A stretch of 34,262 nucleotides of DNA from an uncultured bacterium (GCA_965364895.1 CBDTZL010000003.1:1-34262), one strand, 5' to 3'; numbered from the stretch's first letter, positions 15,468 to 33,216 are shown. Notes: generated by a model not told the origin, from the letters alone. Numbers and translations: made by a program.

Positions 15468-15524
15468 TCAGTCCTTTGCGTACTTGTTCCGTCGGTCGAT
15501 TTCGTCAAAGTTGAAGGTGAACTG
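15468..15524 (-). repeat. Diverged direct copy of the last 57 bp of nuoC, including the stop
   Basis: 52/57 identical to 15553-15609. Encodes [18 protein letters not shown] versus nuo[19 protein letters not shown]. Confidence 0.95.
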
Positions 15525-15552
15525 CTTGTAGCTCACCCTTCTTGGCTCCAAT

Positions 15553-16065
15553 TTAATCTTTTGCGTACTTCTTCCGTCGGTCGATTTCGTCGAAGTTGAA
15601 GGTGAACTGAACCTCTTCGTATCCGAGTGGATAGTCCCTGCGCAGCGGATGACCTTCCCAATCATGCGGCATGATGATGCGCCGTAGATCGGAGCTTCCG
15701 ACGAAGTCAATACCGAACATGTCGAAGACCTCCCGCTCATGCCAATTTGCATTGGGATAAATGGCCTCGATGCTCGGAATTTTCGGATCTTCACCATCCA
15801 GGAAAACACTGAGGCCGAGCAGCACATCAGATTTTATCGAATAGAGCTGATAGACGATCTCAAATCGAGGCTCTTCGGGCCAGTGATCCGCGGCGGTCAG
15901 GGCGATCAACAGATCGAAGTCGCGCTTCCTTAAGAACTTACAAGCATCAACGACGGCTTCGGGTTGGAGGACGGCGGTGAATTGATCGCGGAACTCAAAT
16001 GAGTCGAGAACTCGATCATCAAGTTCCTTTTGCAGCGCGTCCAGAGAGGCTTTTGCGCTGCTCAA
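15553..16065 (-). CDS. nuoC: NADH-quinone oxidoreductase subunit C
   Basis: [33 protein letters not shown]. Start uncertain; TTG 16065 chosen because it overlaps the nuoB stop (TTGA). Confidence 0.94.
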
Positions 16066-16535
16066 GCCAATTTCTCGGCCATTACTTTGTCGTGAAGGGT
16101 GAGGATCCCATGGATGAGCCCTTCGGGGCGAGGAGGGCACCCGGCGATATAGACATCTACCGGCATGATTTCGTCTACGCCAGGCACGATCGCGTAATTA
16201 TTGAAGATCCCCCCACACGAGCAGCAATCTCCCATTGCGATGACCCACTTAGGCTCAGGCATCTGATCGTAGAGTCGCCGCAACACGGGGGCCATCTTGC
16301 GTGATACCCGACCGGCCACGATCAGCAAATCACTTTGCCGCGGACTGGCGCGCATGAGCTCCATACCAAATCGGCTCAGGTCGTAGTCTGGAGCCTGAGC
16401 AGCCATCATCTCGATGGCGCAGCATGCGAGCCCAGAGAGCAGCGGCCACATGGCTCGCGTTCGGCTCCACCCTACGGCCTTTTCCAACGAGGTGGTCACG
16501 ATGCCCATATTGCCGAGCTTGCTCTCTATTCCCAT
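16062..16535 (-). CDS. nuoB: NADH-quinone oxidoreductase subunit B
   Basis: [44 protein letters not shown]. Confidence 0.97.
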
Positions 16536-16882
16536 TCGAGCGCCCCCTTCTTCCAGGCGTAGATCAAGCCGAACGCCAGGATCACAATAAAGACCACCAT
16601 CTCGATCAATCCGACCACCCCGAGATCCCTGAAAACGACCGCCCAGGGGAGTAGGAATACGATTTCAATGTCAAAGAGGATGAAAAGCACCGCAATGAGA
16701 TAAAAGTGGACCGGCATTCGACGTTGACCGGATCCATAAGGAATCATGCCCGATTCGTAGGGCTGACCCTTTCTTCGGTTCTTCTTGCGAGGCCCGAGCA
16801 GGTGTCCGAGCGCGACAATTGAGACAGCGATGCCCACCGAGAAGATGATAAGTACAGCGATGGGGAGGTAGTCGATCGGCAT
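16526..16882 (-). CDS. nuoA: NADH-quinone oxidoreductase subunit A
   Basis: [30 protein letters not shown]. Confidence 0.97.
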
Positions 16883-16933
16883 CTTTTGTGGCTTGAGAGG
16901 GGGGAACCAGGTCGAATTTAATCGCCTCTGTTC

Positions 16934-16942
16934 ATTCTATCA
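16934..16942 (-). promoter_or_regulatory. Putative extended -10 promoter of the nuo operon (TGATAGAAT)
   Basis: TGn-TAGAAT about 50 bp upstream of the nuoA start. No consensus -35. Confidence 0.55.
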
Positions 16943-17094
16943 CAAAGGGGTTTTTGCCCTGTGACTAGGGGGGAATCTTCTCCCTGATTCAAGCTCGATC
17001 TCGCTCTTTTATCCCTATCGGCTTCTCGCCCTCGGCCCCGCTCCTCTCCCGCCGCACTCACGGATAAACCAACTTACAATAACTTGATTGGAGT

Positions 17095-17868
17095 GTGGAA
17101 TTGAAAGTCAGTACCCAGGGGAACAAGAAACTCGAAGCGCTTCTTGAAGAAATCAATGGCGACGCAGAGCTCCAGCAGCTCTGGGAGATGGCTAACAATA
17201 ACGCCGTCCGACGCCTCGGTATGAGCGATCACGGGCCGGTACATATTCAGATTGTAGCCAATGCCTGTGTCAAGATCTTGCGATTGCTCGTAGCAGCGGA
17301 TGTCCAACCGAGCGCAGTTTCTGAACATGAGCTGACTAGTGATGATGCAGAAGTGGTGGTGGTGCTTGCCGCCAGCCTTCACGATATTGGGATGGCCGTC
17401 CATCGCGATAATCATGAGAATTACAGCCTGATATTGGGCTACCCCAAATCGCGCCAGCTTCTTGCCAATCTTTACGATGAGCCGAATTTGACGACGATTG
17501 TTTCCGAAGTGTTGCACGCCATCATTGCTCACCGATGGGATGTGAAGCCGTTGAGCCTGGAGGCCGGGGTATTAAAGGTCGCGGATGCACTGGACATGAC
17601 GCAAGGGCGATCTCGCATCCCGTTTGAGTCGGGCAAGGTCAACATCCACTCCGTGTCGGCGCAGGCCGTCGAGGAAGTGAAAATCCAGAAGGGCGAGGAC
17701 CTGCCCGTTCGGGTCGATATCCTGCTTAATAACTCCGCTGGAATCTTCCAGGTGGACGAGCTGCTCAAACGCAAGCTTGCCAACTCGACACTGGCCCCCT
17801 ACGTGGAAGTCGTCGCCCATCTTGAAACTGAGAAAGAACGCAAAATTCTCGAAATCCATAAGTTCTAG
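17095..17868 (+). CDS. HD-superfamily metal-dependent phosphohydrolase (COG3294-like)
   Basis: MSDHGPVH, LHDIG, HAIIAH, VADALD, GRSRIPF. GTG start (TTG 17101 is an alternative). Confidence 0.85.
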   Translation: MELKVSTQGNKKLEALLEEINGDAELQQLWEMANNNAVRRLGMSDHGPVHIQIVANACVKILRLLVAADVQPSAVSEHELTSDDAEVVVVLAASLHDIGMAVHRDNHENYSLILGYPKSRQLLANLYDEPNLTTIVSEVLHAIIAHRWDVKPLSLEAGVLKVADALDMTQGRSRIPFESGKVNIHSVSAQAVEEVKIQKGEDLPVRVDILLNNSAGIFQVDELLKRKLANSTLAPYVEVVAHLETEKERKILEIHKF

Positions 17869-17888
17869 CCGAACCGGGAGAGAGCCTT

Positions 17889-18803
17889 TTGAGCGACATC
17901 GCCATCTTTTTAGAAGGTCAGAACGGTTTGAATTGGGAAAACTGGAAGCGCATTGGCAAGTCGGTTGAGGAGCTAGGCTTTGCCGGCCTTTACCGCTCGG
18001 ATCACTTCACCAATATGCGGCCTCCAGATAAGGACTCGCTCGAACTGTGGATTTCACTGGCATGGCTGGCCGACAACACGAGCCGGATCGAGTTTGGCCA
18101 ATTGGTCTCGCCGGTATCGTTCAGGCACCCCGTGTTTGCGGCTCGAATGGCGAAAGATGTCGACGATCTTTCCGGAGGCCGCTTCATCCTGGGATTAGGG
18201 GCAGGTTGGCAGGATCACGAGCACGGTAAGTTTGGATTCGACCTCCTGGAGCTCGGCCCTCGGTTTGATCGGTTTGAAGAGGGGGTGGAGATTGCCCACA
18301 AGCTGCTCAAAGGTGAGGGGCCGGCAACCTTCGATGGCAAGTACTACCAGCTGAACGAGGCTGAGCTGCTGCCCAAGCCGCAGCGCAAAGGAGGTCCTCC
18401 AATTCTCATTGGAGGTAGAGGGAAAAACAGAACTCTGCCGCTCACGGCACGCTTCGCAGATGAGTGGAATTTCGGCTTCCGACCGGTAGCCACATTCGCG
18501 AAATTAAATTCCTACCTGGATGAGCTTCTGGATGCCGAGGGTCGAAGACCGCAGGATGTCCGACGCACCGTCGCTAATACCACGATTTTCGGTAGAGATG
18601 AGCAGGAGCTAAAGCGCAAGCTGGATGAGGGCGGCTACACGGAAGAGCGGCTGGAGAAATTCGGGATCATCGCCGGGACTGGCCCGCAGATTGTCGATCA
18701 AATTGGAGCGTATCAAGAAGCAGGAGCGCAGCGTGTGATGCTGCAATGGCTCGATCTGGAGGATCAGGGACTGCTAGAAGCCCTGGCGAAGGCGGTGCTT
18801 TAG
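17889..18803 (+). CDS. LLM-class (luciferase-like) oxidoreductase, probably F420-dependent
   Basis: EGQNGLNW, GLYRSDHF, LVSPVSFRHP, DDLSGGRFILGLGAGW, PPILIGG, ADEWN. TTG start. Confidence 0.88.
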   Translation: MSDIAIFLEGQNGLNWENWKRIGKSVEELGFAGLYRSDHFTNMRPPDKDSLELWISLAWLADNTSRIEFGQLVSPVSFRHPVFAARMAKDVDDLSGGRFILGLGAGWQDHEHGKFGFDLLELGPRFDRFEEGVEIAHKLLKGEGPATFDGKYYQLNEAELLPKPQRKGGPPILIGGRGKNRTLPLTARFADEWNFGFRPVATFAKLNSYLDELLDAEGRRPQDVRRTVANTTIFGRDEQELKRKLDEGGYTEERLEKFGIIAGTGPQIVDQIGAYQEAGAQRVMLQWLDLEDQGLLEALAKAVL

Positions 18804-18870
18804 CTGGCAGATAATGAGGCCAGCGGAAATTCAGGTTCAACCATTTGCGGCCCGGTTACAATCCTCCAAT

Positions 18871-19692
18871 TCATTGCACCAACAGCACCGGACACTCGAA
18901 CTCATCGAGCTCCTCGGGCAGGCTCTTCCCCTCCAGCAAAGGGCTCTCCCCTGGAAGAATGAGGATGCATTCTTCCTGAGTGCGCAGCATGTTTGCCAAT
19001 TCACGGGTATCGGCCCGCACCAACCAGCGGTAGCGAGCCTTCAGCCCCAGCAAGTCCAGTATCGCAGCGACCTCACTTTGTAATGCCCTGGCCTGGTCTT
19101 CGTTCTCGGCCACAATACCAACCGCCAAGTATTCGCCAAGACTAATCGCCGTGTCCAACGCGCGCTTAGATTGATCGGACCCATCGTAAACAGTCATCAG
19201 CGTGGGCAACAGGCGCCCTCCCCGCTCGATGATCATGATTCGATTGGCTCCTGCGGCAACCAGCTTGCGTGCAGTCGAACCTAACCGGCGCTTCCCAGAC
19301 CAGCCTGCCCGCCCAAGGATAAATAGGTCCGCTTCGTTTGCCGCTTGAAGCAACTCAGTTTCGATTGATCCCCGCGCAACGGTGAATGTCCATCGGATTT
19401 GTGCGCGGCTGGCAGCTAGAGCCATCGCCTGGGCGGCGCGGGACGCCTGACTTCGCAACTGCCGGTCCATCCGACTGCTTTCGAGCCGCCGCGTATGAGC
19501 AGAGGCCTCACCGGTTTCCAGCACGGCTGGCAAGGCTGCCAATCGGATGAGGTTGATATCCTCCACGTAGATACCCACCAGTTCCGCATCCAGATCAGCA
19601 GCAAGTTCCACTGCGGCCTCTAGCCCTGCCATGCTCTGGGGAGATGCATCAATGGCAACAAGAATACGTCGGATCGTGTCTGGATTGCTCAC
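18871..19692 (-). CDS. Universal stress protein (two USP-like domains)
   Basis: RRILVAIDAS, ADLFILGR, LGSTAR, second domain TVYDGSDQSKRAL, C-terminal CPVLLV. Confidence 0.85.
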   Translation of the reverse strand: MSNPDTIRRILVAIDASPQSMAGLEAAVELAADLDAELVGIYVEDINLIRLAALPAVLETGEASAHTRRLESSRMDRQLRSQASRAAQAMALAASRAQIRWTFTVARGSIETELLQAANEADLFILGRAGWSGKRRLGSTARKLVAAGANRIMIIERGGRLLPTLMTVYDGSDQSKRALDTAISLGEYLAVGIVAENEDQARALQSEVAAILDLLGLKARYRWLVRADTRELANMLRTQEECILILPGESPLLEGKSLPEELDEFECPVLLVQ

Positions 19693-19703
19693 TTTCTGAT
19701 GAA

Positions 19704-22172
19704 CTATTTCTTCTGCTCCTTGCTGGTCCTATCCTTCTTTGGATCGTTGGCGCTTTCTTCGTCCTCTGATGCTCCATTGCCATCCTCAGCATCCGCAAAT
19801 TTCTTCAAGCGTGCCTGCACTTTGCCGTTGATTGTGTCCTCCGGATAATTCCCCTCATCGTCCAGTTCGCCAGCCGACATATCGGTCAGCAGCTCGATGC
19901 CTTGATCGATGGATTCAATCGAATAGACGTGAAATTTGCCTTCTGATACGGCTTGAACGACATCGTCTCTCAGCATGAGGTGCTGCACGTTCGAATCTGG
20001 GATCAGCACTCCTTGATCACCAGTCAGGCCGCGGGTGTCGCAAATGTCAAAGAAGCCCTCGATCTTTTCGTTGACTCCGCCAATGGCCTGCACTCGGCCA
20101 AACTGGTTGACGGAACCAGTCACCGCAAGCGATTGTTTTACAGGCACTTCCGCGATTGAAGAGAGCAGAGCGTAGAGCTCGGCAGAGGAAGCGCTGTCGC
20201 CTTCCACCCCGCCGTAAGACTGCTCAAATACCAGGCTGGCAGTTAGTGAGAGCTGGCGCTCCGGCGAGTAGCGGGAGCCGAGGAACGAACTCAGGATCAG
20301 CACACCTTTCGAATGGATTGGCCCACCTAAGTCGACTTCCCGTTCGATGTCGAGAACTTCGCCTTTCCCGACCCTCACCCGCGCGGTGATGCGGCTCGGC
20401 CGACCGAATGCAAAGTCCCCAAATTGGTACACGGAGAGCCCATTCACCTGGCCGGTTTGTTTGCCGTCGGTATCGATCAAAATGGTTTCGCGATAGATCT
20501 GCTCCTGTGTGCGCTCCTTGATCCTGTCGGAACGGAATATTTCCTCATCGATCGCTTTGGAGACGTCCTCACTGGTCATCACATCACGATCGGCCTTCCC
20601 CGCCCAATAATCTGCTTCCCGCATCAGATCCGTTATGTGGTTCATTTGGATAGACAGCTTCCTGCCATCCTCGATAATTCTTGAGCTGTGTTCGATGATG
20701 CGAGCTACGCCTCCCGGGTCCAGCGGACGCAATCCGTGCACAGTAGCCAGGCTGCCAATTAGCCGAGCGTATAGCATCTGAGATTCTGAGTCACGATCCA
20801 TCTGGTCGTCAAAGTCCGAAGCCACCCGAAAGAGTTCGCGGGATTCCGGATCGTTCTCCATGAGCAGATAGTAGAGCATCGGATCCCCCAGTAGAGCGAC
20901 TTTTAGATTCAATGGAATCGGTTCGGGATCCAGAGTGACGGTGCTGATAAAACTCTGGACCTGCCCGGGGGTTTCCATCCTGAGCTGCTCTGATCGCAAG
21001 GCCCGCTTCAGGCCTTCCCACGCAAACGGCTCTTGCAACAGCCTGCGAGCGTCCAAGATCAGATATCCGCCATTAGCCCTATGCAGAGCGCCGGGCTTGA
21101 TCAGACTGAAATCTGTAATCAGTGCGCCCATCTGAGCCGTATGTTCGATCCGCCCAAGCAAATTCTGAAAAGTGGGGTTGTCTTCGTAAACCACTGGCGC
21201 ACTCTCAGAAGACCCGTGATCAACAAGCAAATTGACCTGGTAGCGTTGCAAAGCGGACCGTGCGTTGAGAGCCGCAAGTGGTCCGCGGGGGGGAGTCGGG
21301 TCTGAAGTCTGGGCAGTGTCGCCCTCATCGATGATCTGCCGTACATGCTTGACAACGTCAAGCTGAACGGCCTCCAGATGCTCTACGATTGCTGGCAGTT
21401 CCGCGTAGTCCTTTAGCAACTGCCGGATCAATCCTCCAACTGCGATATCTGCCATCTCGCGATTCAGGCTCGTGACCTGCTCCCTGAGCTCTCTCTGCCA
21501 GCCTGGGAGGTTCACGAGCATCGCCTCGAGTTCCTCCTGCATGTCCGCAATGTCTTTTTCAAGAGCCTCGCGTTGCCCCTGCGGCAATCCCTGGAACTCC
21601 TCTGGCGAAATCACCTCACCGTCCCGAACCGGGGCAATCGCCAGCCCGCCTGGAGTCCGCAACACTGCCAGTTCCTTTTTCTCTGCGCGTGTCCGAAGTT
21701 CTTCAAGGGCAGTTTCCTGCCGCTCATTGAGAGCTTCCTGGATCTCTTGCAAGCGGCTTCGGTATTCCTCGCTTTCAAAAGTCACGGGGAGCGCACTTTG
21801 CAGGTCTTCCACAAACTGTTCCATGTCGTGTTTGAATTCGATGCCCTTCCCTGCAGGCAACTCGAGGGCTCTCGGCTTGTTAGACCGTTCGAAATCCTGC
21901 ACATAGCACCAGTCCGACGGAACCTGCTCGCTGTCTGCTACAGCCTCGAATGTCTTCCGAACGAGGTTGCCTTTGCCTATTCCCTCCGGGCCGAAGGCAA
22001 AGATGTTGTAACCCTTCTGGCGAATCCCAACGCCAAATTCCAGGGCGCCAATGGCTCGGGGCTGACCGATGAAGGCCGTCAGGTGTTCGAGATCTTCGGT
22101 CGTTTTGAATTCAAATTGAGCTGGATCGCAGCGCTGACACAGCTGCGCGGGGTCCAGGGCTTTAACTGGCAT
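19704..22172 (-). CDS. Lon-family protease, LonC/YcbZ-like
   Basis: IGQPRA, P-loop GPEGIGKG, coiled-coil insert, IKPGALHRANGGYLILDA, Ser-Lys dyad EGDSASSAE...GGVNEKIEGF. GGAGG RBS. Confidence 0.88.
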   Translation of the reverse strand: MPVKALDPAQLCQRCDPAQFEFKTTEDLEHLTAFIGQPRAIGALEFGVGIRQKGYNIFAFGPEGIGKGNLVRKTFEAVADSEQVPSDWCYVQDFERSNKPRALELPAGKGIEFKHDMEQFVEDLQSALPVTFESEEYRSRLQEIQEALNERQETALEELRTRAEKKELAVLRTPGGLAIAPVRDGEVISPEEFQGLPQGQREALEKDIADMQEELEAMLVNLPGWQRELREQVTSLNREMADIAVGGLIRQLLKDYAELPAIVEHLEAVQLDVVKHVRQIIDEGDTAQTSDPTPPRGPLAALNARSALQRYQVNLLVDHGSSESAPVVYEDNPTFQNLLGRIEHTAQMGALITDFSLIKPGALHRANGGYLILDARRLLQEPFAWEGLKRALRSEQLRMETPGQVQSFISTVTLDPEPIPLNLKVALLGDPMLYYLLMENDPESRELFRVASDFDDQMDRDSESQMLYARLIGSLATVHGLRPLDPGGVARIIEHSSRIIEDGRKLSIQMNHITDLMREADYWAGKADRDVMTSEDVSKAIDEEIFRSDRIKERTQEQIYRETILIDTDGKQTGQVNGLSVYQFGDFAFGRPSRITARVRVGKGEVLDIEREVDLGGPIHSKGVLILSSFLGSRYSPERQLSLTASLVFEQSYGGVEGDSASSAELYALLSSIAEVPVKQSLAVTGSVNQFGRVQAIGGVNEKIEGFFDICDTRGLTGDQGVLIPDSNVQHLMLRDDVVQAVSEGKFHVYSIESIDQGIELLTDMSAGELDDEGNYPEDTINGKVQARLKKFADAEDGNGASEDEESANDPKKDRTSKEQKK

Positions 22173-22270
22173 TGCGCCTCCAAATTGGTGGGAAAGAGTA
22201 CAGGAATTCTAAGACATACCTGGCGGGGTTGGGGGGAGGCTATCTTCCCGGAGAGGCTAGGGTGCGGCGT

Positions 22271-22322
22271 TTGCGACCGATAGACGCGCAGGTGAACGCT
22301 TTGTGGGTTCGGTGACTAAGGT
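22271..22322 (-). repeat. Degenerate direct copy of the 3' end of rpoD
   Basis: Aligns to 22330-22379 at 38/50 identity with one 2-nt indel (hand alignment). Confidence 0.7.
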
Positions 22323-22329
22323 CTGGAAT

Positions 22330-23862
22330 TTATGACAGATAGTCGCGGAGGTGACGGCTGCGAGTTGGGTGACGAAGCTTGCGCAGAGCCTTGGCTTCGA
22401 TCTGCCGAATGCGCTCCCGCGTAACCTGGAAATACTGACCGACTTCTTCTAGAGTGTAGTCCTTGCCATCCTGCAAACCGAAGCGCATTTCCAGGACCTG
22501 ACGCTCCCTTTCTGTAAGGACGGAGAGCGCGTTCTGAACCTGTTCTTTAAGAAGCGACTTTGCGGCTTCATCCACCGGCTCAGGCATGCTTTCATCCTCA
22601 ATAAAATCTGCAAGCTGGCTCGAATCTTCGGACCCGACCGGCGTTTCGAGCGACATTGGCTCCTGCGCAATGCGGATGATCTTTCGAACCTTATCGGCAC
22701 CGCGTCTCAATTTTCGCTCCATGGCAGGGTCAAGAGGCTCTTCGGCCGAGTATGCCTGCCGAATTGCGGCGACATCTTCGGGCTCGAGCACATCAAGTTC
22801 CAGCGCGAGCTCCTCCGATGTAGGTTCCCTTCCCAGTTCCTGCACCATTCTTCGTTGTATTCGCATAAGCCGGTTGATTGTCTCAACCATATGGACCGGG
22901 ATGCGAATCGTGCGCGCCTGATCGGCGATGGCACGGCTGATTGCCTGTCGAATCCACCACGTGGCATAGGTGCTGAATTTGTATCCCTTCGCGGGGTCGA
23001 ACTTTTCGACCGCTCGCAGCAAACCAATGTTGCCCTCTTGGATTAGATCAAGAAAGGCAATGCCTCTCCCCATGTAACGCTTGGCGACGCTCACCACCAG
23101 CCTGAGATTGGCTCGGATCAACGCCTTTTGTGCTTCGTCCGCAAGCGCTACCAGGTCCTCATGCTCTGCTTTCAGCGCATCTGTCTCTGGCAGCCAGCGC
23201 TTATAGGTTTGCTTGCTGGGAAGGCCTTTGACTTTCGCAAGCCGCGTCTGCAGCTTCTCTTGAAGCTCTCTAGGCATAGCGTACAAGCCCTGCATGGCTT
23301 CGAGCCCGGTTCGTGCAACTCCTTCCCACGCTGGATCGGTGCCCCATAGGCCATTGTTCAGCCAGCCTCGAATATACGAAGATTCCTCTCCGTACCAGGT
23401 TTCCCTCAAGCGAATTGATTCCTCGAGCACGGATGATAGATCCGGCGCAGCTTCCTTCATGCGCTTTGCGTCCTCAAGCAGGCGTTTCCAGGACGTTCGA
23501 AGGTCATCGAATAAGGCCAGGTGCGCCTCATATAGCGAGTCGTTGCCCTCCTTCTTTCCGCGCCCTTCTTGCAAACCATCCATTCGAATCAGAGCTGCCA
23601 TGCGAACCGCCAGCCAGAGTTCCTGATCTGATTTCAGCAACTTAACTCTGCCGATTTCCTTGAGGTATAGCCGTACGGGGTCATCGCCGCCGTCGATCGG
23701 CATAGAGAGCGGCCCCGTCTCTGGCATATCGGCCAGCACCTTTTTGTCCTTGTCCTTCTTGTCCCCGTTGAAATCAGGCTCGACATCCACCTTCTTGCCC
23801 TCAACCACGTCAACCGGTTCTTGAGCTAGATCGTTGGAATTCGAGTTCTTTGACTTTGCCAT
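22330..23862 (-). CDS. rpoD: Primary RNA polymerase sigma-70 factor
   Basis: [12 protein letters not shown] (1.2), [54 protein letters not shown]...[20 protein letters not shown]. Directly downstream of dnaG. Confidence 0.96.
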
Positions 23863-23868
23863 AGGCTT

Positions 23869-25749
23869 CTACTTCCGCCCTGAAAGGGCTGTGTCGAGCC
23901 GCCGTTTCTGCGTAATTAGGTGCTGAGCCTGCTGGGCCAAACCGACCATCTGCTGCGGCTCTGACTCCAGCTCCTGGGCAGACTGCTGCTGAAAGCTAAG
24001 TTGTTCTAACATCCCTTCGACTCGTCGCATGCGCAGGCGCAAAAAATCGGACGATATTGCATCCACTACTTTCGGGCGGGCGAAGTCTACTGCTTCTGCC
24101 TTACTGGCGAAAGCAACCGCCTTATCGAGCGCTGTTCCGTCCAGCAAGGCCTTCCAGCGGTCGGTAGGTTCCTCATCTACCTGACCCAAAGATGATTGCA
24201 CTGCCTTGAAGATCACCTGAGATTCGGTGCCTGTGAAATCCTGATCTGACAATCCTTCCAGCTCCAGAGCATGCAGCTGTCCGTCAATCCAGAAGGTGAG
24301 CTCTGGATCAATCAAGAGCAATCCCAGGCAAAAGCCCTCTGTGGCCGACTGGTTAGCCTTTCGAATGTCGGGAGCTTCGGGAATCGCTTGAGCGCTCCCA
24401 GCCGTTTTGGCTCGAGTCTTCCCTGTCGGGCGCCAACCCATCAGTGCTCGCTCATCCACTTTCAGGCGTCGTGCCAGCCCCTGTCGATACGATTCTCTCT
24501 CCACCGGATCGGACACATCTTCTATAAGAGGTAGCACCCGCCTTGCGATGGCGGCCTTGTCTTTCGCATCTTGCAAATCGCTCGATTCGATCAAAACATC
24601 CATCACATACTCAACCACCGGCGTTGCAGTTCGAAGCAAATCATTCCACGCTTCAGGATCCTCGAGCGCGACTTCATCCGGATCCTTCTCATCCGGCAGG
24701 CTGACGATCCGAATCTCCGCATCCAGGCGGCCTTCATATCGCACGAGGCCTCTTGCATCAAAGACGGGATCCGGTTCGCGATCGAGTGCTTCCCGGGCGA
24801 CGTCGAGTCCACGCAAGGTGGCTTGATCGCCAGCAGCATCGGCATCGAGCGCCAGGACAATGTTGCGGCTGAAACGCTTTATCGTGCGCAGTTGATCCGG
24901 GGTCAGGGCCGTTCCCATGGGTGAGACGGCGTTCCCGTACCCGGCCTGGTGCAGGGCGATCACGTCCAAATACCCTTCCACCACAACCGCCTGATCCGCA
25001 GCTCGAATGGCCTTGCGAGCCATATCTAGACCGTACAGAATTCGCCCCTTGTCGAATAAGGCCGTTTGGGGAGAGTTAATAAATTTAGGTTCGTCTTTTG
25101 GATTGAAAACGCGCGCACCGAAGCCTGCCATCTGACCGCGCGCGTCTCGAATGGGGAAGATGATCCGGTTGCGAAAGCGGTCGTAAGATCCTGCGCCTTC
25201 CCGCTCAACAATCAGTCCTGCCTCAAGCAGCTCCGACTGCTCATGCCCCTTCTCGAGCAAGAAAGTCTGAAGCGCGTCCCAGGAATCCAGGGCATATCCA
25301 ATCCCGAAACTCTCCAGCGTCTCCGCTGTCAGCCCGCGGCCGAATAAATAATCCAGGACCGGCTGGTTGTGTTGGAGGTGATTGCGGTAGAAGGTAACTG
25401 CGGATTCGAGAAGTACACGCAGCCCCTTTTGCGCTTCGTCCTGTGCTTCTTGTTGGGGGTTTCGTGGCCGGAGTTCGACTCCCGCTCGCTTAGCTAGATG
25501 CTCAAGGGCCTGAGGGAAATCCCAGCCTTCTTGCTTCATCACAAACTTATATACATCCCCACCCTCGCTGCAGGCTCCGAAACAGCGCCAGGTTCCTGTG
25601 TCAGGAAACACTACGAAAGCTGGCGTCCGAGTGTTGGCGTGGAAGGGACAGAAACCGGTGAAGTTTTTTCCAGATTTCCTTAGCTGAACCGATTCGCCAA
25701 TCACCTCGGCGATGTCGATCCGCTCCTTAATTTCTTCTACTTCATTCAT
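23869..25749 (-). CDS. dnaG: DNA primase
   Basis: CPFH...WRCFGAC zinc finger, DRFRNRIIFPI, KFINSPQT, TOPRIM VEGYLDV and LDADAAG. Confidence 0.97.
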   Translation of the reverse strand: MNEVEEIKERIDIAEVIGESVQLRKSGKNFTGFCPFHANTRTPAFVVFPDTGTWRCFGACSEGGDVYKFVMKQEGWDFPQALEHLAKRAGVELRPRNPQQEAQDEAQKGLRVLLESAVTFYRNHLQHNQPVLDYLFGRGLTAETLESFGIGYALDSWDALQTFLLEKGHEQSELLEAGLIVEREGAGSYDRFRNRIIFPIRDARGQMAGFGARVFNPKDEPKFINSPQTALFDKGRILYGLDMARKAIRAADQAVVVEGYLDVIALHQAGYGNAVSPMGTALTPDQLRTIKRFSRNIVLALDADAAGDQATLRGLDVAREALDREPDPVFDARGLVRYEGRLDAEIRIVSLPDEKDPDEVALEDPEAWNDLLRTATPVVEYVMDVLIESSDLQDAKDKAAIARRVLPLIEDVSDPVERESYRQGLARRLKVDERALMGWRPTGKTRAKTAGSAQAIPEAPDIRKANQSATEGFCLGLLLIDPELTFWIDGQLHALELEGLSDQDFTGTESQVIFKAVQSSLGQVDEEPTDRWKALLDGTALDKAVAFASKAEAVDFARPKVVDAISSDFLRLRMRRVEGMLEQLSFQQQSAQELESEPQQMVGLAQQAQHLITQKRRLDTALSGRK

Positions 25750-25883
25750 CTAGTTTTAGCGGGTATTCGAAATGTGCAACGAAAGTCGGGCCCGTATGGG
25801 GCTGCAATGATAACTACGTTTGAGTTGCCCTGCAGGATTAATTGCTAGTACCTTCTTCCTTCCACTCAAACAGCAAGCTCACT

Positions 25884-25906
25884 TGTGGCGTTGTTGATGC
25901 GCCACA
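25884..25906 (-). terminator. Hairpin just downstream of glyQS (possible terminator or processing stem)
   Basis: 7-bp perfect stem TGTGGCG/CGCCACA with a 9-nt loop, 5 nt after the stop. No U-tract. Confidence 0.3.
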
Positions 25907-25911
25907 TCGAC

Positions 25912-28900
25912 TTAAAAATCTTCCAGCTTAGAAAGATCCGCCACACCCTCGGCAAGCCGTACCACCCGCTGCAGCAAGCCCAAGCGGTTTTCTCGCAGCG
26001 ACTGATCCTCCGCCATGACCATGACTTCCTCAAAGAAGCGATCGATGGTCGGGAGTACTGGCTCGAACGCGGTGAGAAACCCATCCACCGAACCTGGCTC
26101 TCGATCCGCGTTTTCAGCTGTCTGCAGCGCTTCATACAGATCGCGAGTCGATGTCTCCTCGAGCTTTTTATCGTCGAATGGATAGACCTGCTCAAGATCG
26201 CGGGTAATTCGAGCGCAACGAGAGTAGGCCTGCAGCATTGCAATCCAGCTTTCGCGTGAGATCCACTGCTTCAGCTCGTCGGCCGCCCTTGCCGCGCGTA
26301 CAGGATCGCTTCCCTGTTCTTCTAGCACCGCCGCCACAACATCGTGCGCAAAGCCTTGATCCAGCAAGAGCTGCTGCTGGCGTCGAACGATAAAGGCCAA
26401 GCAGTTGTTGAGCGCCTCGGCCTCTCCTTTACGATCATAGCCATCCCATGCCCAGGAAAGGGCCGCATTCAGATCGAGGCTGAGGTCCTTCCCGACCAGT
26501 ATTTGCACCAATCCCACGGCGCTTCGGCGCAGCCCAAATGGATCCCGCGTGCCTGTAGGTTGGATCCCAACTGAAAAGAGACCTATCAGAGAATCCAATC
26601 GATCTGCCAAACCGAGTGCGGTTCCTGGATCGGCGGTGGGCAATTCATCGCCCGAAGCCCGCGGGAGATAGTGCTCGAAGATCGCCTGTGCCACGCTCTC
26701 CGTCTCGCCTGATTTCTCGGCATAGTACCTCCCCATGGCTCCTTGCAAAGAGGTCATGTCCACCACCATCAAGGTAGCCAAATCTGCCTTGCACAGCTGA
26801 GCTGCGCGGACTGCGGATTGTCCATCCTTCTCGGAAAGGTTGAAGTGGCCAGCCAGCGTCGCGGTCAGCCCTTCCAGCCGGTGAGTTTTGTCCAGCATGG
26901 ACCCGAGGTCCGTTTGAAACGTCAACTTGTCGAGCTTGCTGACAAAGCCTTCAAGCGATTGCTCCAGATCGCGAGCTACAAAGTATTTGGCATCCGCAAA
27001 ACGGGCTCGGATGACCTGTTCGTTCCCTCTGATTACAGCCTCCGTCGAGTCGCGACGGCCATTCGACACTACGATGAAATTCGGAAGCAAACGATCCTTC
27101 GACTCAACTGGGAAGTAGCGCTGATGCTTTTTCATTACCGCGATAAGCACGTCAGACGGGAGATCCAGATAGTCCTCATCATAGGTCCCCAGCAGCGCCT
27201 GAGGCGCCTCGACCAGATTCGCAACCTCCTGAAGTAAATCGGCATCATGTGAAACGTTGCCAGAGACTTCGTTGGACAGCTCCCCGATCTGATTCTGGAT
27301 TTCTGAACGCCTGAGCTCCGGATCGGTGATGATTTCTTGCGATTCAAGCATTTCCAAAAATGAGTTCGCATCATGAATCTTGAGCTCCGGCTTGCCTGCG
27401 CCTCGCAGACCACGCCCGGATCGGCCGCTCTGCAGGCCGGCATACTCGAAGGATACGAGGTGCTCACCGTGTAGGGCGAGCAGCCAGCGGATTGGCCGGG
27501 AAAAAGTCGTGCCCGAGCTTTCCCAGCGCATGGACTTGTCAAACCGCAGTCCGGCGATCACTCGTGGGAGCGCTTCAGAGAGTACGTGCCGGGCTGGGCC
27601 AGTACCTTCGCTAACCTGCGCCACTGCATAGATGCCGCCATCCATTTCTTGTTTTTCCAATGCTTCGACCTCAACGCCTGCGCTGCTCGCAAAACCGGTG
27701 CCAGCTGGAGTCGGCTTGCCATCAGTGTCAAATGCCTTGTCCCACGGCGGCCCCTTGACAAGGCGCTCGCTGCCTGACTGTTGAGGCGCAAGATCCTCTA
27801 CCAGCGCAATCAGGCGGCGGGGCGTACCGATGATCCGAATCGGACCGTGCTCGAGGGGGGCCTCGGTGAGCATGGCCTCGATCGAACTCTCGAGTTGCTC
27901 CAATGCGGACGTCAGGTCTGAATCCGGAAGTTCCTCCGTACCTATCTCCAGCAGGAATGTCGCTGGCTGGTCCGGCCCAGAATCCGCATCGGCGGCAACG
28001 CTCGCGGGCCGATCGTTACTGGAACTCGCATTGCTTTCTTCAGAAGACTCCGATTCCAACCAGGGAAACCCAGCTTGTTCTCGTTCCTGCAGATATGATT
28101 CGGCGATCTGGCGCGAAATACGACGCATTCTTCCGAAGTAACTGGCTCTCTCGGTCACGCCAACTGCGCCACGTGTGTCTAACACGTTGAAGGTATGCGA
28201 GCACTTCAATAGCTGGTCATACGCAGGCAGCGTTAGGCCGGCCTCGAGGGCACGTACGGCCTCCGCCTCGTATCCGTCAAACATCTGGCGGAGCTGCGCT
28301 ACGTCGGCCAGTTCAAAATAGTATTTGCTGTGCTGCTGCTCGGCCGCCAAGTTGAGGTCCCCGTAGGTTCTCCGATCGTCCCAGCGGATATCGCCAAAGT
28401 GGGTTACACCTTGAATGGCCATGAGGATTCGCTCCAGGCCATAAGTCAACTCTACTGAGACCGGATCCAGAATCTGGCTGCCAGCCTGCTGGAAGTAGGT
28501 AAACTGGGTAATCTCGAGGCCATCCAACCAAACCTCCCAGCCGAGCCCCCAGGCGCCCAAGGCAGGTTGCTCCCAGTTGTCTTCCACAAATCGAATGTCG
28601 TGCTGCAGTCGATCGATGCCGAGCGCCTCGAGTGACTGAAGATACAGTTCCTGTGGATCGCCGGGCTCCGGCTTGAGGATCACCTGGTACTGGTAGTGGA
28701 GGCCCATCCGATTTGGATTCTCTCCATAGCGGGCATCATCTGGTCGGACAGAGGGTTCGACATACGCGACCCGCCAAGGCTCTGGGCCCAGGACGCGCAA
28801 AAAAGTTGCCGGGTTCATTGTGCCGGCTCCGACCTGGAGGTAGTAGGGCTCCCAAATAAGACAGCCCTGGTCGGCCCAAAAACGGTCGAGTGCGAAAATT

Positions 28901-28920
28901 GCTTCTTGAAAAGTCAGCAT
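25912..28920 (-). CDS. glyQS: Glycine-tRNA ligase, fused alpha+beta subunits
   Basis: Alpha: [42 protein letters not shown]. Ser-rich linker. Beta: [42 protein letters not shown]. Confidence 0.96.
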
Positions 28921-28948
28921 TGATTAGCCATTTGTGTCGCGCAGGGAG

Positions 28949-29749
28949 TCAGCTCAAATCGGAGCTTGAGAGTTCGTATCCCGCTTGCCGCACTTCCCTA
29001 ACCTGCCGCACGAAGGCTGGGACATGCAGATCGCGCTCAACCAGATGGTTGAGATAACTCTCCATCAGAGCCTCTACTTCAAGAGCCGCTGAGCCACTAA
29101 TTTGTGGCCGAGCGGCCTCTTCATACCCATGGCGCTGATAGTGACGCAGCACTTTGAGCGCCCCGAGTGAGAGCGGGCGTGCGAAGGGATTTTTGGGGCC
29201 GCAGTTGGGGCACAACAGGCCACCTTCAGCTGCTGCGAAGAACTGATCCTGCGGCTGTGCTTCATCCGAGCAGTTGACACATCTGTGTAACTCAGGTCGG
29301 TAGCCGGAGAGATCTAGGAGTCGGATCTGAAAATATCGAAGCGGCGCAGCAGTCTCGTCGTTCTGGTCGAGCCGCTCAAGGGTATTGGTTGTGAGATGGA
29401 AGAGAGCTTGTGACTCGGACTCTTCTACACCAAATCGATCCACCAGCTCAGCAACATAGGCTGCCTGACCGAGCCGATCCAGATCCTGCCTCAAGGTGGG
29501 ATACGCGTCAATCGTTTCCGCCTGCGTAATGATGTCTAGCTCGCGTCCCTTGGCAATCAACAGATTGCTGCGCGTGAGCGGCTCCAGGTGCCCGGCTTTC
29601 CGGGAGCTGGGCTTGCGAACCCCCTTAGCTACCGCCCGAAGTTTGCCGTAGTCCGGTGTGAAGATGGTAACGATCCGATCGGCCTCCCCCAGGTCCTGAC
29701 GGCGAAGGACGACCGAATCTGTTCGATAAAGTCGGCTACGATTCGACAC
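28949..29749 (-). CDS. recO: DNA repair protein RecO
   Basis: LGEADRIVTIFT, AVAKGVRKPSSRKAGHLE, CVNC...CPNC zinc finger. GTG 29749 preferred because the ATG at 29758 overlaps the -10 box. Confidence 0.93.
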   Translation of the reverse strand: MSNRSRLYRTDSVVLRRQDLGEADRIVTIFTPDYGKLRAVAKGVRKPSSRKAGHLEPLTRSNLLIAKGRELDIITQAETIDAYPTLRQDLDRLGQAAYVAELVDRFGVEESESQALFHLTTNTLERLDQNDETAAPLRYFQIRLLDLSGYRPELHRCVNCSDEAQPQDQFFAAAEGGLLCPNCGPKNPFARPLSLGALKVLRHYQRHGYEEAARPQISGSAALEVEALMESYLNHLVERDLHVPAFVRQVREVRQAGYELSSSDLS

Positions 29750-29756
29750 GCGCGGC

Positions 29757-29765
29757 ATTATACCA
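29757..29765 (-). promoter_or_regulatory. Extended -10 promoter (TGGTATAAT) for recO-glyQS
   Basis: Perfect TGn-TATAAT, 7 nt upstream of an in-frame GTG. Confidence 0.65.
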
Positions 29766-29805
29766 GCGCGGCCTTTTTGAGACTCTGGAGCGATATAGAG
29801 GGGGC

Positions 29806-30216
29806 TTACCGCCTGATTAAATCTTCGGGTCCAAAGGCGAGAGGATAGAGATCCTTGAGGTTCGCCTCCAGTCGGATTTCGTCGTCAGCATCGGTGGCCA
29901 CCACGAGTAGATCCATGCCGAATTCTGCAAGTACCTGGCGGCAGGCGCCGCATGGCTCGCCTCCATTTTCAGAGGCGATGACTATTGCACTGAAGGCTTT
30001 CTCCCCATTGGTAACTGCGCTGAAAACAGCACTCCGTTCTGCGCAAATGCCCGATGGATATGCCGCATTCTCTACATTGACACCCACAAATATTTTGCCC
30101 GAGCGGGTAAGTAGCGCCGCGCCTACCGGGTATTCCGAATAGGGAGCGTATGCTTGTTTGCGAGCCTCGCGGGCACGCTGAAAGAGCTCTTGCATTTTGG
30201 GATTATCAGGGTCCAT
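29806..30216 (-). CDS. cdd: Cytidine deaminase (homotetrameric type)
   Basis: AYAPYS, GVNVENAAY, ICAERSA, PCGACRQ. Start uncertain (30216 or 30228). Confidence 0.94.
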   Translation of the reverse strand: MDPDNPKMQELFQRAREARKQAYAPYSEYPVGAALLTRSGKIFVGVNVENAAYPSGICAERSAVFSAVTNGEKAFSAIVIASENGGEPCGACRQVLAEFGMDLLVVATDADDEIRLEANLKDLYPLAFGPEDLIRR

Positions 30217-31495
30217 TCGTCGTTCCATTCTCATTCCGCCCATCGAGCGAACTTTCCACTCGCCTCGCACGCACGCGGCGAATCCGCCGCCGCACTACCT
30301 GATCCACGACGAGCTGTAAGCCGCCCGATTCGAGCTGATCGCCCGGAGAGGGCACACGCCCAAGTTCACTGTAGATAAAGCCTCCTAAGGTTTCGCCCGC
30401 ATCCGTGGGCAGATCTGCATTCGTGATTTGATTAACATCATCCAGATCGATGCCGCCGCTGAAAATGTACTCGCCATTCTCCCCTTGCTCGTAGCTCGCC
30501 TCTTCGGCGAAATCATACTCGTCCCGGATTTCTCCGACGATCTCCTCAACGATATCCTCAATGGTTACAAGGCCGGCAGTGCCGCCGTATTCATCCACCA
30601 CAATTGCCAGGTGGAAGCGGCTGGCCTGCATTTCATCGAGCAGATCATCAACCTTTTTGGCTTCCGGCACGAAATACGCCTCCCGCTTGAGTTCCTCAAT
30701 TGGACGCTCATAGTTTCCCGCACTCCAGGCTTCCAGAAGGTCCTTCACATAAATCAAGCCGGTCACGTTGTCGATGTTCTCATTGAAAATCGGCGCTCGA
30801 GAGTAGCCGGTCTCTAGCATCATTTCGGTGGCGTCAGGAATAGAAGTAGATTCTTCCAACGCCTGGACATCGATACGTGGGACCATGACTTCTCGCGCCA
30901 GAGTGTCATCCAGCCGGAAGATGGAATAGATCATTTCTTTCTCGTCCTGCTCGATGGAGCCGACTTCTTCGCCGGCATCCACCATAGTCATGATCTCCTT
31001 CTCTGTCACCAGCGGATGCAAGGGACCGTTTTGGTTTGCTGAGCCCTGCCCACCGACCTTGAGCATCAGCCGAACGAGGGGCGAGAGGGTCGCTCCAAGT
31101 ACAGCAACCAGGGGACTGAGACGTAATGCCCAAGCCTCGGGGTTACGAAGAACAAGGCTTTCGGCGAGAAACTCCAGAGTGCTCATAACGAGTCCAGTCG
31201 CGGCGAGTGTCAGGGCAAATCCCAGCAGTCCGTCTGCAAAACTCAGATAAGTGGCCGCCGCTACCCCGATCGCTAGCAATCGAATGACTCCAAGCGCAAT
31301 TCTCAGCGATAGGAGCAAGCTGGATGAATCCTGAGTCATGCGCGCCGCGCGAGCGCTGCCAGTTGCACCTTCTTGCTCCAGGCGATGGAGAGTGGTCGGC
31401 CGGCTGTTCACCAGCGCGCTGCGCGCAGCTGCCAATAGCGTCTCAGCAATCAAAAGCAGCACCAGGATGGTAATGCTGACAATTTGATTAATCAT
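30206..31495 (-). CDS. Hemolysin/CNNM family protein (DUF21 + CBS pair + CorC)
   Basis: N-terminal TM region, AREVMVPR, GYSRAPI, AYFVPE, AIVVDEYGGTAGLVTIEDIVEEIVGEIRDEYD, ETLGGFI. Confidence 0.92.
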   Translation of the reverse strand: MINQIVSITILVLLLIAETLLAAARSALVNSRPTTLHRLEQEGATGSARAARMTQDSSSLLLSLRIALGVIRLLAIGVAAATYLSFADGLLGFALTLAATGLVMSTLEFLAESLVLRNPEAWALRLSPLVAVLGATLSPLVRLMLKVGGQGSANQNGPLHPLVTEKEIMTMVDAGEEVGSIEQDEKEMIYSIFRLDDTLAREVMVPRIDVQALEESTSIPDATEMMLETGYSRAPIFNENIDNVTGLIYVKDLLEAWSAGNYERPIEELKREAYFVPEAKKVDDLLDEMQASRFHLAIVVDEYGGTAGLVTIEDIVEEIVGEIRDEYDFAEEASYEQGENGEYIFSGGIDLDDVNQITNADLPTDAGETLGGFIYSELGRVPSPGDQLESGGLQLVVDQVVRRRIRRVRARRVESSLDGRNENGTTNGP

Positions 31496-31520
31496 CCGGC
31501 TCTAACTTCCGAATTACACG
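31488..31520 (-). repeat. Diverged direct copy of the last 33 bp of glmU, including the stop
   Basis: 28/33 identical to 31535-31567. Both read RVIRKLEPDD*. Confidence 0.92.
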
Positions 31521-31534
31521 CTGGGATCATGGGC

Positions 31535-32878
31535 TCAATCATCTGGCTCTAACTTCCGGATCACGCGCGCCGGCACTCCCGCAGCAAGCATGTGATCCGG
31601 CACATCTTTAGTGACCACCGCACCTGCTCCGGTCCGGGCGCCAATGCCGATCGTTACCGGCGCCACGAGCATCGTATCACTCCCGATAAAGGCGCCTTCA
31701 TGGATCGTTGTGGCGTTCTTTCGTTTGCCGTCGTAATTGCAGGTGATGGTTCCAGCGCCAATGTTGACGTTTTCGCCAATTGTGGCATCCCCAAGATACG
31801 AGAAGTGGCCAACTTTCACACCGGCTGCCAACGTGCTGTCCTTGATTTCACCAAAATTACCGACATGTACACCGGGTCCCAGCCTTGCCCCAGGTCGCAA
31901 TCTGGCGAACGGACCCACATCAACGCCGGCCTCAAGCACGGCCTTATCCACCACCGAGGCTTCAATGACACATCCTTCCGCGATGGTGGCGTTCCGGAGA
32001 ATCGAATTTGGGCCAATTCGGCAATCCTCACCGATGACCGTCTGACCTCCAAGGTGCGTATTCGGATGCAGGACCGTTCCTGGGCCAACGCTCACATCGG
32101 CATCGATATAGGTCGTGTTCGGGTCGATCATCCGCACCCCAGCTGCCATCAACTGGCGGTTGATTCTTCTTCTTGCGGCGGCCTCTGCCTGGGCCAGGTG
32201 TTCCATGGTGTTGACGCCAATCGTTTCGTCTGGGTCGTTGACTTCAATCGCGCCAATGCCCTCGGTGGCAAGGCCAATCACGTCTGTCAGGTAGTACTCG
32301 CCTTTTGGTGAAATAGGCACATTGGCAAGCTCTTTCCACAGCCACTTGGCGTCAAAGCAGTAGGCTCCGACGTTCAGCTCAGTGAGTGCCAATTCAGCAG
32401 AGTTGGCCTGCGCCTCCTCCACAATACCGGAGACCGCGCCCTGATCATCTCGAACGATGCGGCCGAAGCCGCGTGATTGCTCGTTGTTAGAGGTCAGCAG
32501 CGTCACGACGCCGGAGCTCGTTGATTGGGCTTCAACAAGGGATCGGAGGGTATCCGCGCTCAGCAGCGGCATATCGGCATTGACGACCAGAACTAGGTCG
32601 GATTCTCCGTCCAGGCGTTCTGCCGCCTGCAGTACAGCATGGCCAGTGCCCAGCGGCTCGGTCTGCTCAATCCATTTGGATGACCCTCCGGCAGCATCGC
32701 TAATGGCGGTGCCCTTCGGAGGAACAATTAAGTACGGCTGGTTGCCGGTTGCCTCCTGGCAGGCAAGAGCCGACCATCGGATCATCGGCTGACCGGCCAG
32801 TGGCTGAAGCAGCTTTGGCATGGAAGACTTCATGCGCGTGCCGAGGCCGGCAGCCAGGATGATGGATTCAGATCGCAT
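31535..32878 (-). CDS. glmU: Bifunctional UDP-GlcNAc pyrophosphorylase / glucosamine-1-P N-acetyltransferase
   Basis: IILAAGLGTRMKS, QTEPLGTGHAV, GEYYLTD, GPFARLRP, GNFGEIK, HFSYLGDA, GAGTITCNYDG. Confidence 0.97.
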   Translation of the reverse strand: MRSESIILAAGLGTRMKSSMPKLLQPLAGQPMIRWSALACQEATGNQPYLIVPPKGTAISDAAGGSSKWIEQTEPLGTGHAVLQAAERLDGESDLVLVVNADMPLLSADTLRSLVEAQSTSSGVVTLLTSNNEQSRGFGRIVRDDQGAVSGIVEEAQANSAELALTELNVGAYCFDAKWLWKELANVPISPKGEYYLTDVIGLATEGIGAIEVNDPDETIGVNTMEHLAQAEAAARRRINRQLMAAGVRMIDPNTTYIDADVSVGPGTVLHPNTHLGGQTVIGEDCRIGPNSILRNATIAEGCVIEASVVDKAVLEAGVDVGPFARLRPGARLGPGVHVGNFGEIKDSTLAAGVKVGHFSYLGDATIGENVNIGAGTITCNYDGKRKNATTIHEGAFIGSDTMLVAPVTIGIGARTGAGAVVTKDVPDHMLAAGVPARVIRKLEPDD

Positions 32879-32974: not shown

Positions 32975-33045
32975 CTGGGGAGCGTGGAATCGAACCACGA
33001 TTTTTCGCTCCAAAGGCGAACGTCATGCCGTTAGACCACTCCCCA
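32975..33045 (-). tRNA. tRNA-Gln (anticodon TTG)
   Basis: Acceptor stem TGGGGAG/CTCCCCA, anticodon arm TTCGC-CTTTGGA-GCGAA, T arm CGTGG-TTCGATT-CCACG, discriminator G. Followed by CCT, so CCA is not fully encoded. Confidence 0.96.
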
Positions 33046-33068: not shown

Positions 33069-33087
33069 CCCCGAGATTCTTGGCCTG

Positions 33088-33216
33088 CTTGTCCTGTGCA
33101 GCAGGGCTTGTCCTGTGCAACAGGGCTTGTCCTGTGCAAGCTAGGGCTTGTCCTTCGGCAGGGCTTGTCCTGTGCATCAGAGGACTTGTCCTGCGCAGCA
33201 GGGCTTGTCCCGCGCA
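33088..33216. repeat. Tandem array of 7 imperfect 17-21 bp units (consensus CTTGTCCTGTGCAGCAGGG)
   Basis: CTTGTCC recurs at 33088, 33107, 33126, 33147, 33164, 33185 and 33204. Units carry an internal CCT(G)...(C)AGG dyad. Confidence 0.92.

Follow-up and report, generated by a model that had tools for sequence, protein, structure and literature searches.

Gene-end echoes in an Anaerolineales genome: probable short tandem duplications filtered by selection

The 34,262-nt window analyzed here spans the entire contig C3, which belongs to a metagenome-assembled genome of the Anaerolineales (Chloroflexota), designated G000. In it the genes nuoC, glmU and rpoD, all on the minus strand, are each followed by an imperfect direct copy of their own last codons, which we call an echo. 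Such echoes are real, have a definable structure, recur across the genome, vary in copy number among relatives and carry the imprint of a selective filter. We consider them probably to be short tandem duplications kept at gene ends, in which ordinary mutation has been filtered by selection. The original prediction, made from the window alone, had instead proposed that a gene's 3' end is replaced by an allele from a related lineage while the old end is displaced downstream, so that both copies evolved as coding ends. The three copies on which it was built were borne out, with repeats of 33–57 nt at offsets of 85 (nuoC), 47 (glmU) and 57–59 (rpoD).

To place these three cases in a wider context, we turned to the whole of G000, a fragmented assembly of 325 contigs and 2.46 Mb that is 84% complete and in which an in-house open reading frame (ORF) caller identified 2315 genes. 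The last 75 nt of each gene of at least 150 codons were aligned with the 250 nt downstream, and the reversed downstream sequence of the same 1671 gene ends served as the null. At a threshold score of at least 30, echoes were found at 20 of the 1671 gene ends and at none of the 1671 in the null, where the maximum score was 29. This end-versus-downstream comparison had been suggested in the original prediction, and its outcome agrees with the repeated, genome-wide process claimed there. Gene starts compared with their own upstream sequence yielded fewer cases (6/1546; Fisher P=0.010), as did gene interiors compared with the sequence that follows them (5/1692; Fisher P=0.002). The echo-bearing genes share no theme: their products include NuoC, GlmU, RpoD, PolA, PNPase, RplB, ThrS, SucD, RibF, XdhC, a NUDIX protein and an extracytoplasmic function sigma factor, among others. 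When the last aligned block is extended without gaps, a stop codon stands at the homologous place in 16 of the 20 echoes and is absent from four, so the predicted ending of the echo at the stop position holds for most cases and fails for a fifth of them.

An unbiased scan of G000 for direct repeats (at least 26 matches in 30, offsets of 12–400) retrieved 48 close direct-repeat loci. Nineteen of these were intragenic, and in 19 of 19 the period was divisible by three (P=9e-10). At the other loci the repeat covered a stop only (13 loci), a stop and a start (three), a start only (one) or non-coding or unannotated sequence (12), the imbalance between stop-only and start-only loci (13 vs 1) being significant (P=0.002). 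Units at gene ends measured 40–89 nt, with repeats of 15–65 nt, spacers of 1–39 nt and one to three copies, and their period showed no preference for multiples of three. That the intragenic repeats are all in frame, and that stops are covered far more often than starts, argues for duplication that is blind to position, followed by selection against damage to frames and starts. Echoes would then be seen mostly at 3' gene ends because they are harmless there, the protein being left intact.

The arrangement of the units points the same way. Wherever the spacer could be read, it copies the sequence that lies after the second copy, which indicates plain tandem duplication, and the same sequence follows both copies, head to tail, at C17, C10, C58, C90, C35 and the glmU locus of G003, a member of the same genus. 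At C17 the unit is 73 nt long and the repeat extends beyond the stop to take in the start of the gene that follows; C10, C58 and C90 have a third copy, partial or full, after the second. The C58 locus (around 4546–4675; L146, L169) is a junction of overlapping genes that has turned into a 45-nt mini-array, with three copies in G000, one in the sister species G002, two in G003, three in G009 and one in G007. The echo at C104 (xdhC) is also present in G002, where it is much more decayed. Two further loci deserve mention in their own right. On C90 (around 3128–3240; L155), three 40-nt units lie between rplB and rpsS, each with the last codons and stop of rplB. On C12 (5367–8138; L151), the gene for DNA polymerase I, apparently intact, has a 3'-end echo of its own; the 5' nuclease of this enzyme corresponds, in bacteria, to the flap nuclease tied to such duplications in yeast.

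Slipped-strand or microhomology-mediated misalignment would make tandem duplications of 40–89 nt anywhere in the genome. With a stop codon inside the unit, the first copy would still terminate the protein normally and the second would still furnish the next gene with its ribosome-binding region and start, leaving the remainder as an untranslated echo, at times with a truncated pseudo-start of that gene. An out-of-frame unit just inside the 3' end, as at C164, would swap the last few residues only and displace the original end downstream. Arrays would gain and lose units by unequal crossover, which would give one to three copies, and their units would be partly homogenized and would otherwise decay. 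In this chain of events it is the slippage step itself that we infer.

The differences between copies were consistent with this explanation. Summed over the 20 pairs, the codon differences comprised 31 silent and 56 non-silent ones. A silent share of 31/87 exceeds the random expectation of ~0.24 (P=0.0099) and fits the ~0.39 expected for one constrained and one free copy (P=0.58), whereas two coding alleles would, by our estimate, give about three quarters. The original prediction had stressed that nine of ten differences in nuoC and glmU are silent. That count is right (4/5 and 5/5) but not representative, because the silent to non-silent ratio is 1:7 at C120, 1:4 at C17, 0:4 at C12 and 2:6 at rpoD; at C35 it is 2:9. 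Loci differed from one another only marginally (Monte Carlo P=0.07 when silent changes are set against non-silent ones, P=0.03 for third positions). In six of the 16 echoes with a stop, the stop codon differs from that of the gene (P about 0.03 in a rough hand calculation), which is only mildly unexpected with one constrained copy. Decay is apparent as well, in the rpoD echo without its stop, in indels of the nuoC echo and in frameshifts of some relatives' echoes, in line with the differing levels of decay noted originally. On these grounds the proposal that both copies evolved as coding ends does not hold in general, and the part of it that stands is what looks like a displaced old end at C164 and glmU. 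For the silent-rich pairs, the likely source would be recombination between alleles, not a translated echo.

The first of the three cases in the window lies at the nuoC–nuoD junction, where we distinguished the following features:

15553..16140, minus strand: nuoC coding sequence, 195 aa, with its TAA at 15553 (NCBIfam NuoC_fam, 3.1e-37)
15553..15609, minus strand: copy 1 of the nuoC repeat, the translated last 18 codons plus stop
15525..15552, minus strand: spacer of 28 nt, its 3' part conserved in the genus and pairing with the start of the echo
15468..15524, minus strand: nuoC echo, 52/57 identical to copy 1 and ending in TGA
14222..15454, minus strand: nuoD coding sequence (NCBIfam NuoD, 4.8e-169)

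The final 57 nt of nuoC, including the TAA, are thus repeated downstream at an offset of 85, and the copies differ at TTC/TTT, AAG/AAC, AAA/AAG, GAT/GAC and TAA/TGA, four of the five differences being silent. Relative to nuoC the echo is in the +1 frame, and it lies 13 nt upstream of the nuoD ATG. A 119-aa ORF (15468–15827, minus strand) runs in this +1 frame of nuoC, ends at the TGA of the echo and has no family match; in all likelihood it is a side effect of the duplication that can mislead gene callers.

The second case is the decayed echo of rpoD:

22330..23862, minus strand: rpoD coding sequence, with its TAA at 22330 (NCBIfam RpoD models)
22275..22320, minus strand: decayed rpoD echo, ~80% identical, with one 2-nt gap and CAA now at the stop position

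Around 45 nt of the gene end align with the echo at an offset of 57–59, and the local-alignment score is 34, compared with the null maximum of 29 over the 1671 genes. Orthologous echoes were found in G002, where decay has gone further, and in G003, where the echo is better kept and ends in TAG; in the other ten genus genomes compared, no rpoD echo was detectable. One contig of the independent metagenome assembly X1 joins 22173 to 22328 and so skips 154 nt of the rpoD–lon intergenic region, the echo included; it may come from a relative with a different spacer.

As G000 is fragmented and the copies differ as alleles do, two strain variants could have been stitched in tandem during assembly. We compared four independent per-run metagenome assemblies (X1, X2, X14 and X16) as contigs rather than raw reads, so that they show the presence of the echoes and not their frequency. 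Contigs of X14, X16 and X2, from independent studies, bridge all three echoes: nuoC copy and echo are spanned in two of the four runs (X14 record 9, X16 record 17), the rpoD echo by X14 record 12 and X16 record 19, and glmU copy and echo by X2 record 30 (0 differences over 1500 nt) and X14 record 16. X1 contigs end inside the nuoC repeat (record 1 starts at 15560), making this run uninformative at nuoC. In addition, the assemblies of other species hold orthologous arrays with species-specific substitutions, and the few bases that the junctions have in common would not suffice for a k-mer join. The chimeric assembly that had been named as a possible source of error is refuted by the bridging contigs, and an artefact of this kind is in our judgement exceedingly improbable.

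Copy number at nuoC varies within the genus. Three copies with a period of 85–86 nt are present in G002, G004, G006 and G011, two in G000, G009 and G010, and one in G003 and G007; in G013 the contig ends at the nuoC stop. In both G004 and G006 unit 1 is identical to unit 2, and the units of G009 share 40 identical nt. The echo of G000 is orthologous to the last copy in its relatives, and it is this nuoD-proximal copy that retains the YAKD-type end found in single-copy genomes. The last copy is frameshifted in G011 and has suffered a 9-nt deletion and the loss of its stop in G002; the same 9-nt deletion is also found within the echo in X14, X16 and one X2 contig. No nuoC echo was seen outside the genus in a survey of 80 related loci, of which 79 were tested (at the remaining locus no stop lay within reach) and 21 were mis-framed and uninformative; the three positives among the 58 evaluable loci were all closest relatives.

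Some of these features could suggest that an echo such as that between nuoC and nuoD is functional, either as a short frame or hairpin for translational coupling or mRNA processing, or as a spare end reached via frameshifting. The last nuoC copy keeps the YAKD-type end and the stop in five of the seven echo-bearing genus genomes and changes between species mostly at third positions, and, judged by eye, wherever a genome has an intact echo it is in the +1 frame. Moreover, the 3' end of the spacer pairs with the first bases of the echo in a conserved 8-bp hairpin (window about 15516–15537, minus strand), which is kept in most units of seven genus genomes at -11 to -13 kcal/mol in most units; a weaker native hairpin (-3 to -7 kcal/mol) occupies the equivalent place ahead of the first nuoC copy. 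A structured RNA at this junction was, however, rejected as a candidate, as the fold of the 141-nt region is no more stable than those of shuffled sequences (z = -1.15). No Rfam family was found at nuoC–nuoD, the only gathering-threshold match in the window being one tRNA elsewhere. The broken echoes of G011 and G002 and the deletion in the X14, X16 and X2 contigs also argue against a function, as do the single-copy members of the genus and the 55 of 58 evaluable Anaerolineales loci that have no echo. Conservation that looks coding-like can be mimicked by partial homogenization, of which the 40 nt shared in G009 and the identical units of G004 and G006 are examples. The glmU echo has no start codon and an in-frame stop four codons upstream; the GTG available at nuoC is too near the purine-rich stretch, and with relatives' echoes broken, translation of the echo by frameshifting or from its own start was rejected. 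Taken together, a functional echo appears very unlikely.

Direct repeats of gene 3' ends are typical remains of integrative elements. In the attL/attR pairs of elements that insert at 3' ends, the two sites form a direct repeat and the copy borne by the element completes the gene, so that an echo could be what is left when an element bringing its own copy of a gene end is later deleted. The present loci differ from such pairs: the copies are only 1–39 nt apart, the readable spacer is a copy of native downstream sequence, there are up to three copies, some with identical units, and one case lies inside the nuo operon. No integrase, other recombinase, transposase or reverse transcriptase was found among the 34 window ORFs scanned, in keeping with the original statement that no recombinase is visible in the window, and no gene stands between the copies in any relative examined. 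The cassettes or integrative elements suggested there as candidates have no support, and we regard them as an almost negligible prospect. Diversity-generating retroelements likewise place a near-copy of a gene's 3' end close by, as template and variable repeats. Here, unlike in those systems, the differences (C/T, G/C, A/G and T/C, in both directions) are not tied to adenine, there is no reverse transcriptase and the targets are housekeeping genes. Ectopic spacer capture of a CRISPR-like kind was also considered and rejected, the repeats (15–65 nt) and spacers (1–39 nt) varying too widely.

The glmU junction raises a different question, that of where the two copies came from. Its features are:

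31535..32878, minus strand: glmU coding sequence, with its TGA at 31535 (NCBIfam glmU, 5.2e-144)
31535..31568, minus strand: copy 1 of the glmU repeat, the translated end, in the genus-consensus state at 5/5 variable sites
31522..31534, minus strand: spacer, which together with the end of copy 1 forms a truncated pseudo-start, of MIEP type, of the downstream gene
31488..31521, minus strand: glmU echo, overlapping the ATG (31495) at which the downstream gene actually starts
30206..31495, minus strand: downstream gene for a CNNM/CorC/GldE-like membrane protein (NCBIfam GldE/CorC), starting inside the echo

The final 34 nt of glmU recur at an offset of 47, and all five differences (CGC/CGT, GTG/GTA, ATC/ATT, CCA/CCG and TGA/TAA) are silent. 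All five echo states are derived, and each is silent when read in frame with glmU; ATT and TAA, like the start of the next gene, are shared with the functional end of G002. The MIEP-type start is the one used by most genus members. Ten of the 13 genus genomes have a single copy of the glmU end, with a stop that overlaps the start of the neighbour downstream; the G007 contig breaks off ahead of the glmU stop. In X16 record 22 the flanks match at ~99% and exactly 31498–31544 (47 nt) are absent, leaving a single, hybrid glmU end whose 5' part is that of copy 1 and whose 3' part is that of the echo, and duplicated (X2, X14) and single-copy (X16) forms thus coexist among populations. G003 (L015) has an independent 58-nt tandem duplication with other borders and with four silent and no non-silent coding differences. 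In G010 (L021), ~50 nt with an ATGATT motif at both ends separate the glmU stop from the start of the next gene, perhaps the remains of a duplication that is older and has decayed.

A comparable case is C164, where a 76-nt unit lies wholly within the 3' end of a DUF2344 gene. Since the unit is out of frame, a new stop arose at the junction and the original end was displaced downstream. It is the echo, not the translated copy, that is collinear with the functional end in G002, with eight silent and two non-silent codon changes between them. An imperfect direct repeat of 12 nt (9/12 by eye) flanks the unit. Judging from their sequences, the echoes at glmU and C164 look like what was the working gene end for most of their history. 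Possible causes are a one-step illegitimate join, a duplication followed by homologous replacement from a single-copy strain, or chance.

The first two of these causes amount to import, in which DNA of a relative would be anchored by homology in the gene and joined illegitimately at a microhomology, so that the copies are different alleles from birth, or in which, in a two-step variant, one unit of a tandem duplication would be replaced by the allele of a single-copy strain. Homology-facilitated illegitimate recombination during DNA uptake would set a donor's gene-end allele upstream of the resident one, with a microhomology at the junction. Import would account for the consensus state of glmU copy 1 and the five silent derived states of its echo, two of them shared with G002 along with the next gene's start, for the continuation of the C164 echo into sequence orthologous to the G002 gene end, for the 4 silent and 0 non-silent differences in G003 and for a third-position bias that varies by locus (P=0.03); the absence from G000 of any long pair above 94% identity would also fit. 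Such recombination would also account for the allele-like, mostly silent differences at glmU and C164. Most pairs, in contrast, are not silent-rich (as at C120, C17, C12, rpoD and C35), the pooled differences fit one free copy, and arrays of identical units are impossible by this route. No donor tract or lineage was found either. Identity between G000 and G002 is flat across the glmU duplication, at ~0.92 on either side and without a step, and the dip at C164, to 0.78–0.89 over 400 nt upstream, is ambiguous as background variation is equally large. An exact scan of metagenome contigs for the spacer-type junction of glmU gave 0 stretches, a result that, given the collection and exact matching, cannot prove absence, and a broader junction pattern retrieved one locus, a single-copy allele of G002 type. 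A coherent alternative is that glmU was duplicated in situ long ago and that the extra unit was deleted twice independently, in G002 and in X16; it explains the data equally well, except for the third-position bias (about P=0.01). Import as a general account of the echoes we therefore rate as unlikely; homology-facilitated illegitimate recombination, one of the two mechanisms put forward originally, is possible at a minority of loci and is neither required nor demonstrated.

A narrower proposal is that a share of the genus's echoes were born as stacks of alleles, diverged DNA having been joined out of register at a microhomology and the resident end pushed downstream. Non-identical repeats resist deletion, so such stacks would outlive ordinary slippage duplications. 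If true, they would form a readable record of recombination between lineages at gene ends, and would help to explain the enrichment of echoes in the genus described below. We hold it quite doubtful that they make up such a share.

Outside G000, echoes were found at 7 of 363 gene ends in the rest of the genus, or 4 of 360 once the nuoC locus, which had guided the choice of contigs, was removed. Three genomes outside the genus gave 3 of 1120, two of them clear (G036) and one a low-complexity match (G020). The phenomenon is therefore general, and the genus is moderately enriched (24/2031 vs 3/1120, ~4.5-fold, P=0.0075), with the caveat that the outside genomes are more complete assemblies, a possible confounder of this excess. 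Loss of mismatch repair was rejected as its cause, MutS matches being present in 41 of 41 genomes and above the cut-off in 33, G000 included.

Several observations weigh against tandem duplication plus selection as a sufficient account. The genus excess is one, being unexplained by it. Flanking microhomology arms, the expected trace of the mechanism, were not demonstrated in general: the best 10-mer arm match averaged 6.6 against a null of 5.6, the strong matches being true third copies or the unit end, and the best case, C164, reached 7/10 (P=0.11). Such arms are expected to erode with age. Nor was a newborn duplication caught in G000, where no long pair is more than 94% identical and copies are 6–29% diverged. 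Changes specific to the echo are silent in ~6/7 cases at C164 and, the stop aside, fall at third positions in 4/4 cases at glmU, which is unexpected for an echo running free. By eye, the nuoC spacer aligns only weakly with the nuoC–nuoD intergenic region and the annotated nuoD start, so that homology there is inferred. Finally, the gene calls are crude and some genes were missed.

Among known systems, the closest parallel to the echoes is found in microhomology-mediated tandem duplications (MTDs), which are reported to be depleted from coding sequence by purifying selection (PMC13167724). Like MTDs, as far as these are described in the main accounts (PMC13167724; bioRxiv 10.64898/2026.02.28.708716), the echoes are head-to-tail duplications of a short single-copy segment, expand to three copies, revert to one, appear near-neutral and are depleted from coding sequence. 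They differ in that the arms are mostly unreadable, the copies are 6–29% diverged and a subclass that straddles the stop codon stands out. Stop codons, gene ends and intergenic regions go unmentioned in the main text of PMC13167724 (its supplements lie outside this statement), and literature searches that did yield the MTD papers gave no description of stop-straddling echoes.

For annotation, the echoes are a source of false gene ends, pseudo-starts and long alternative-frame ORFs, such as the 119-aa frame at nuoC. For the study of genome evolution, they display mutational input and selection cleanly side by side, with out-of-frame duplications lasting only where a stop shields the protein. 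Duplication of a junction also separates overlapping genes, for example glmU and the gene next to it, leaving both free to change, and copy-number polymorphisms of this kind can serve as strain markers in metagenomes. A minority of echoes may be stacked alleles, which, if so, would mark past recombination between lineages; this is the sole partly novel element of the present account.

The window as a whole holds the nuo operon (nuoA–N), rpoD, dnaG, a fused glyQS, recO, cdd, glmU and neighbouring genes, almost all on the minus strand. The glyQS fusion (25912–28920, minus strand) encodes a glycine–tRNA ligase of 1002 aa in which the alpha and beta subunits are joined. The tRNA gene that gave the sole Rfam gathering-threshold match lies at 32975–33045 (minus strand), and between it and the stop of a response-regulator gene (33252) a 19-nt unit is repeated 6.4 times (33087–33210; 82% matches). 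An internal repeat of nuoI (8619–8675 and 8754–8810, 72% identical) corresponds to the two 4Fe-4S ferredoxin motifs of its product and is an ordinary domain repeat.

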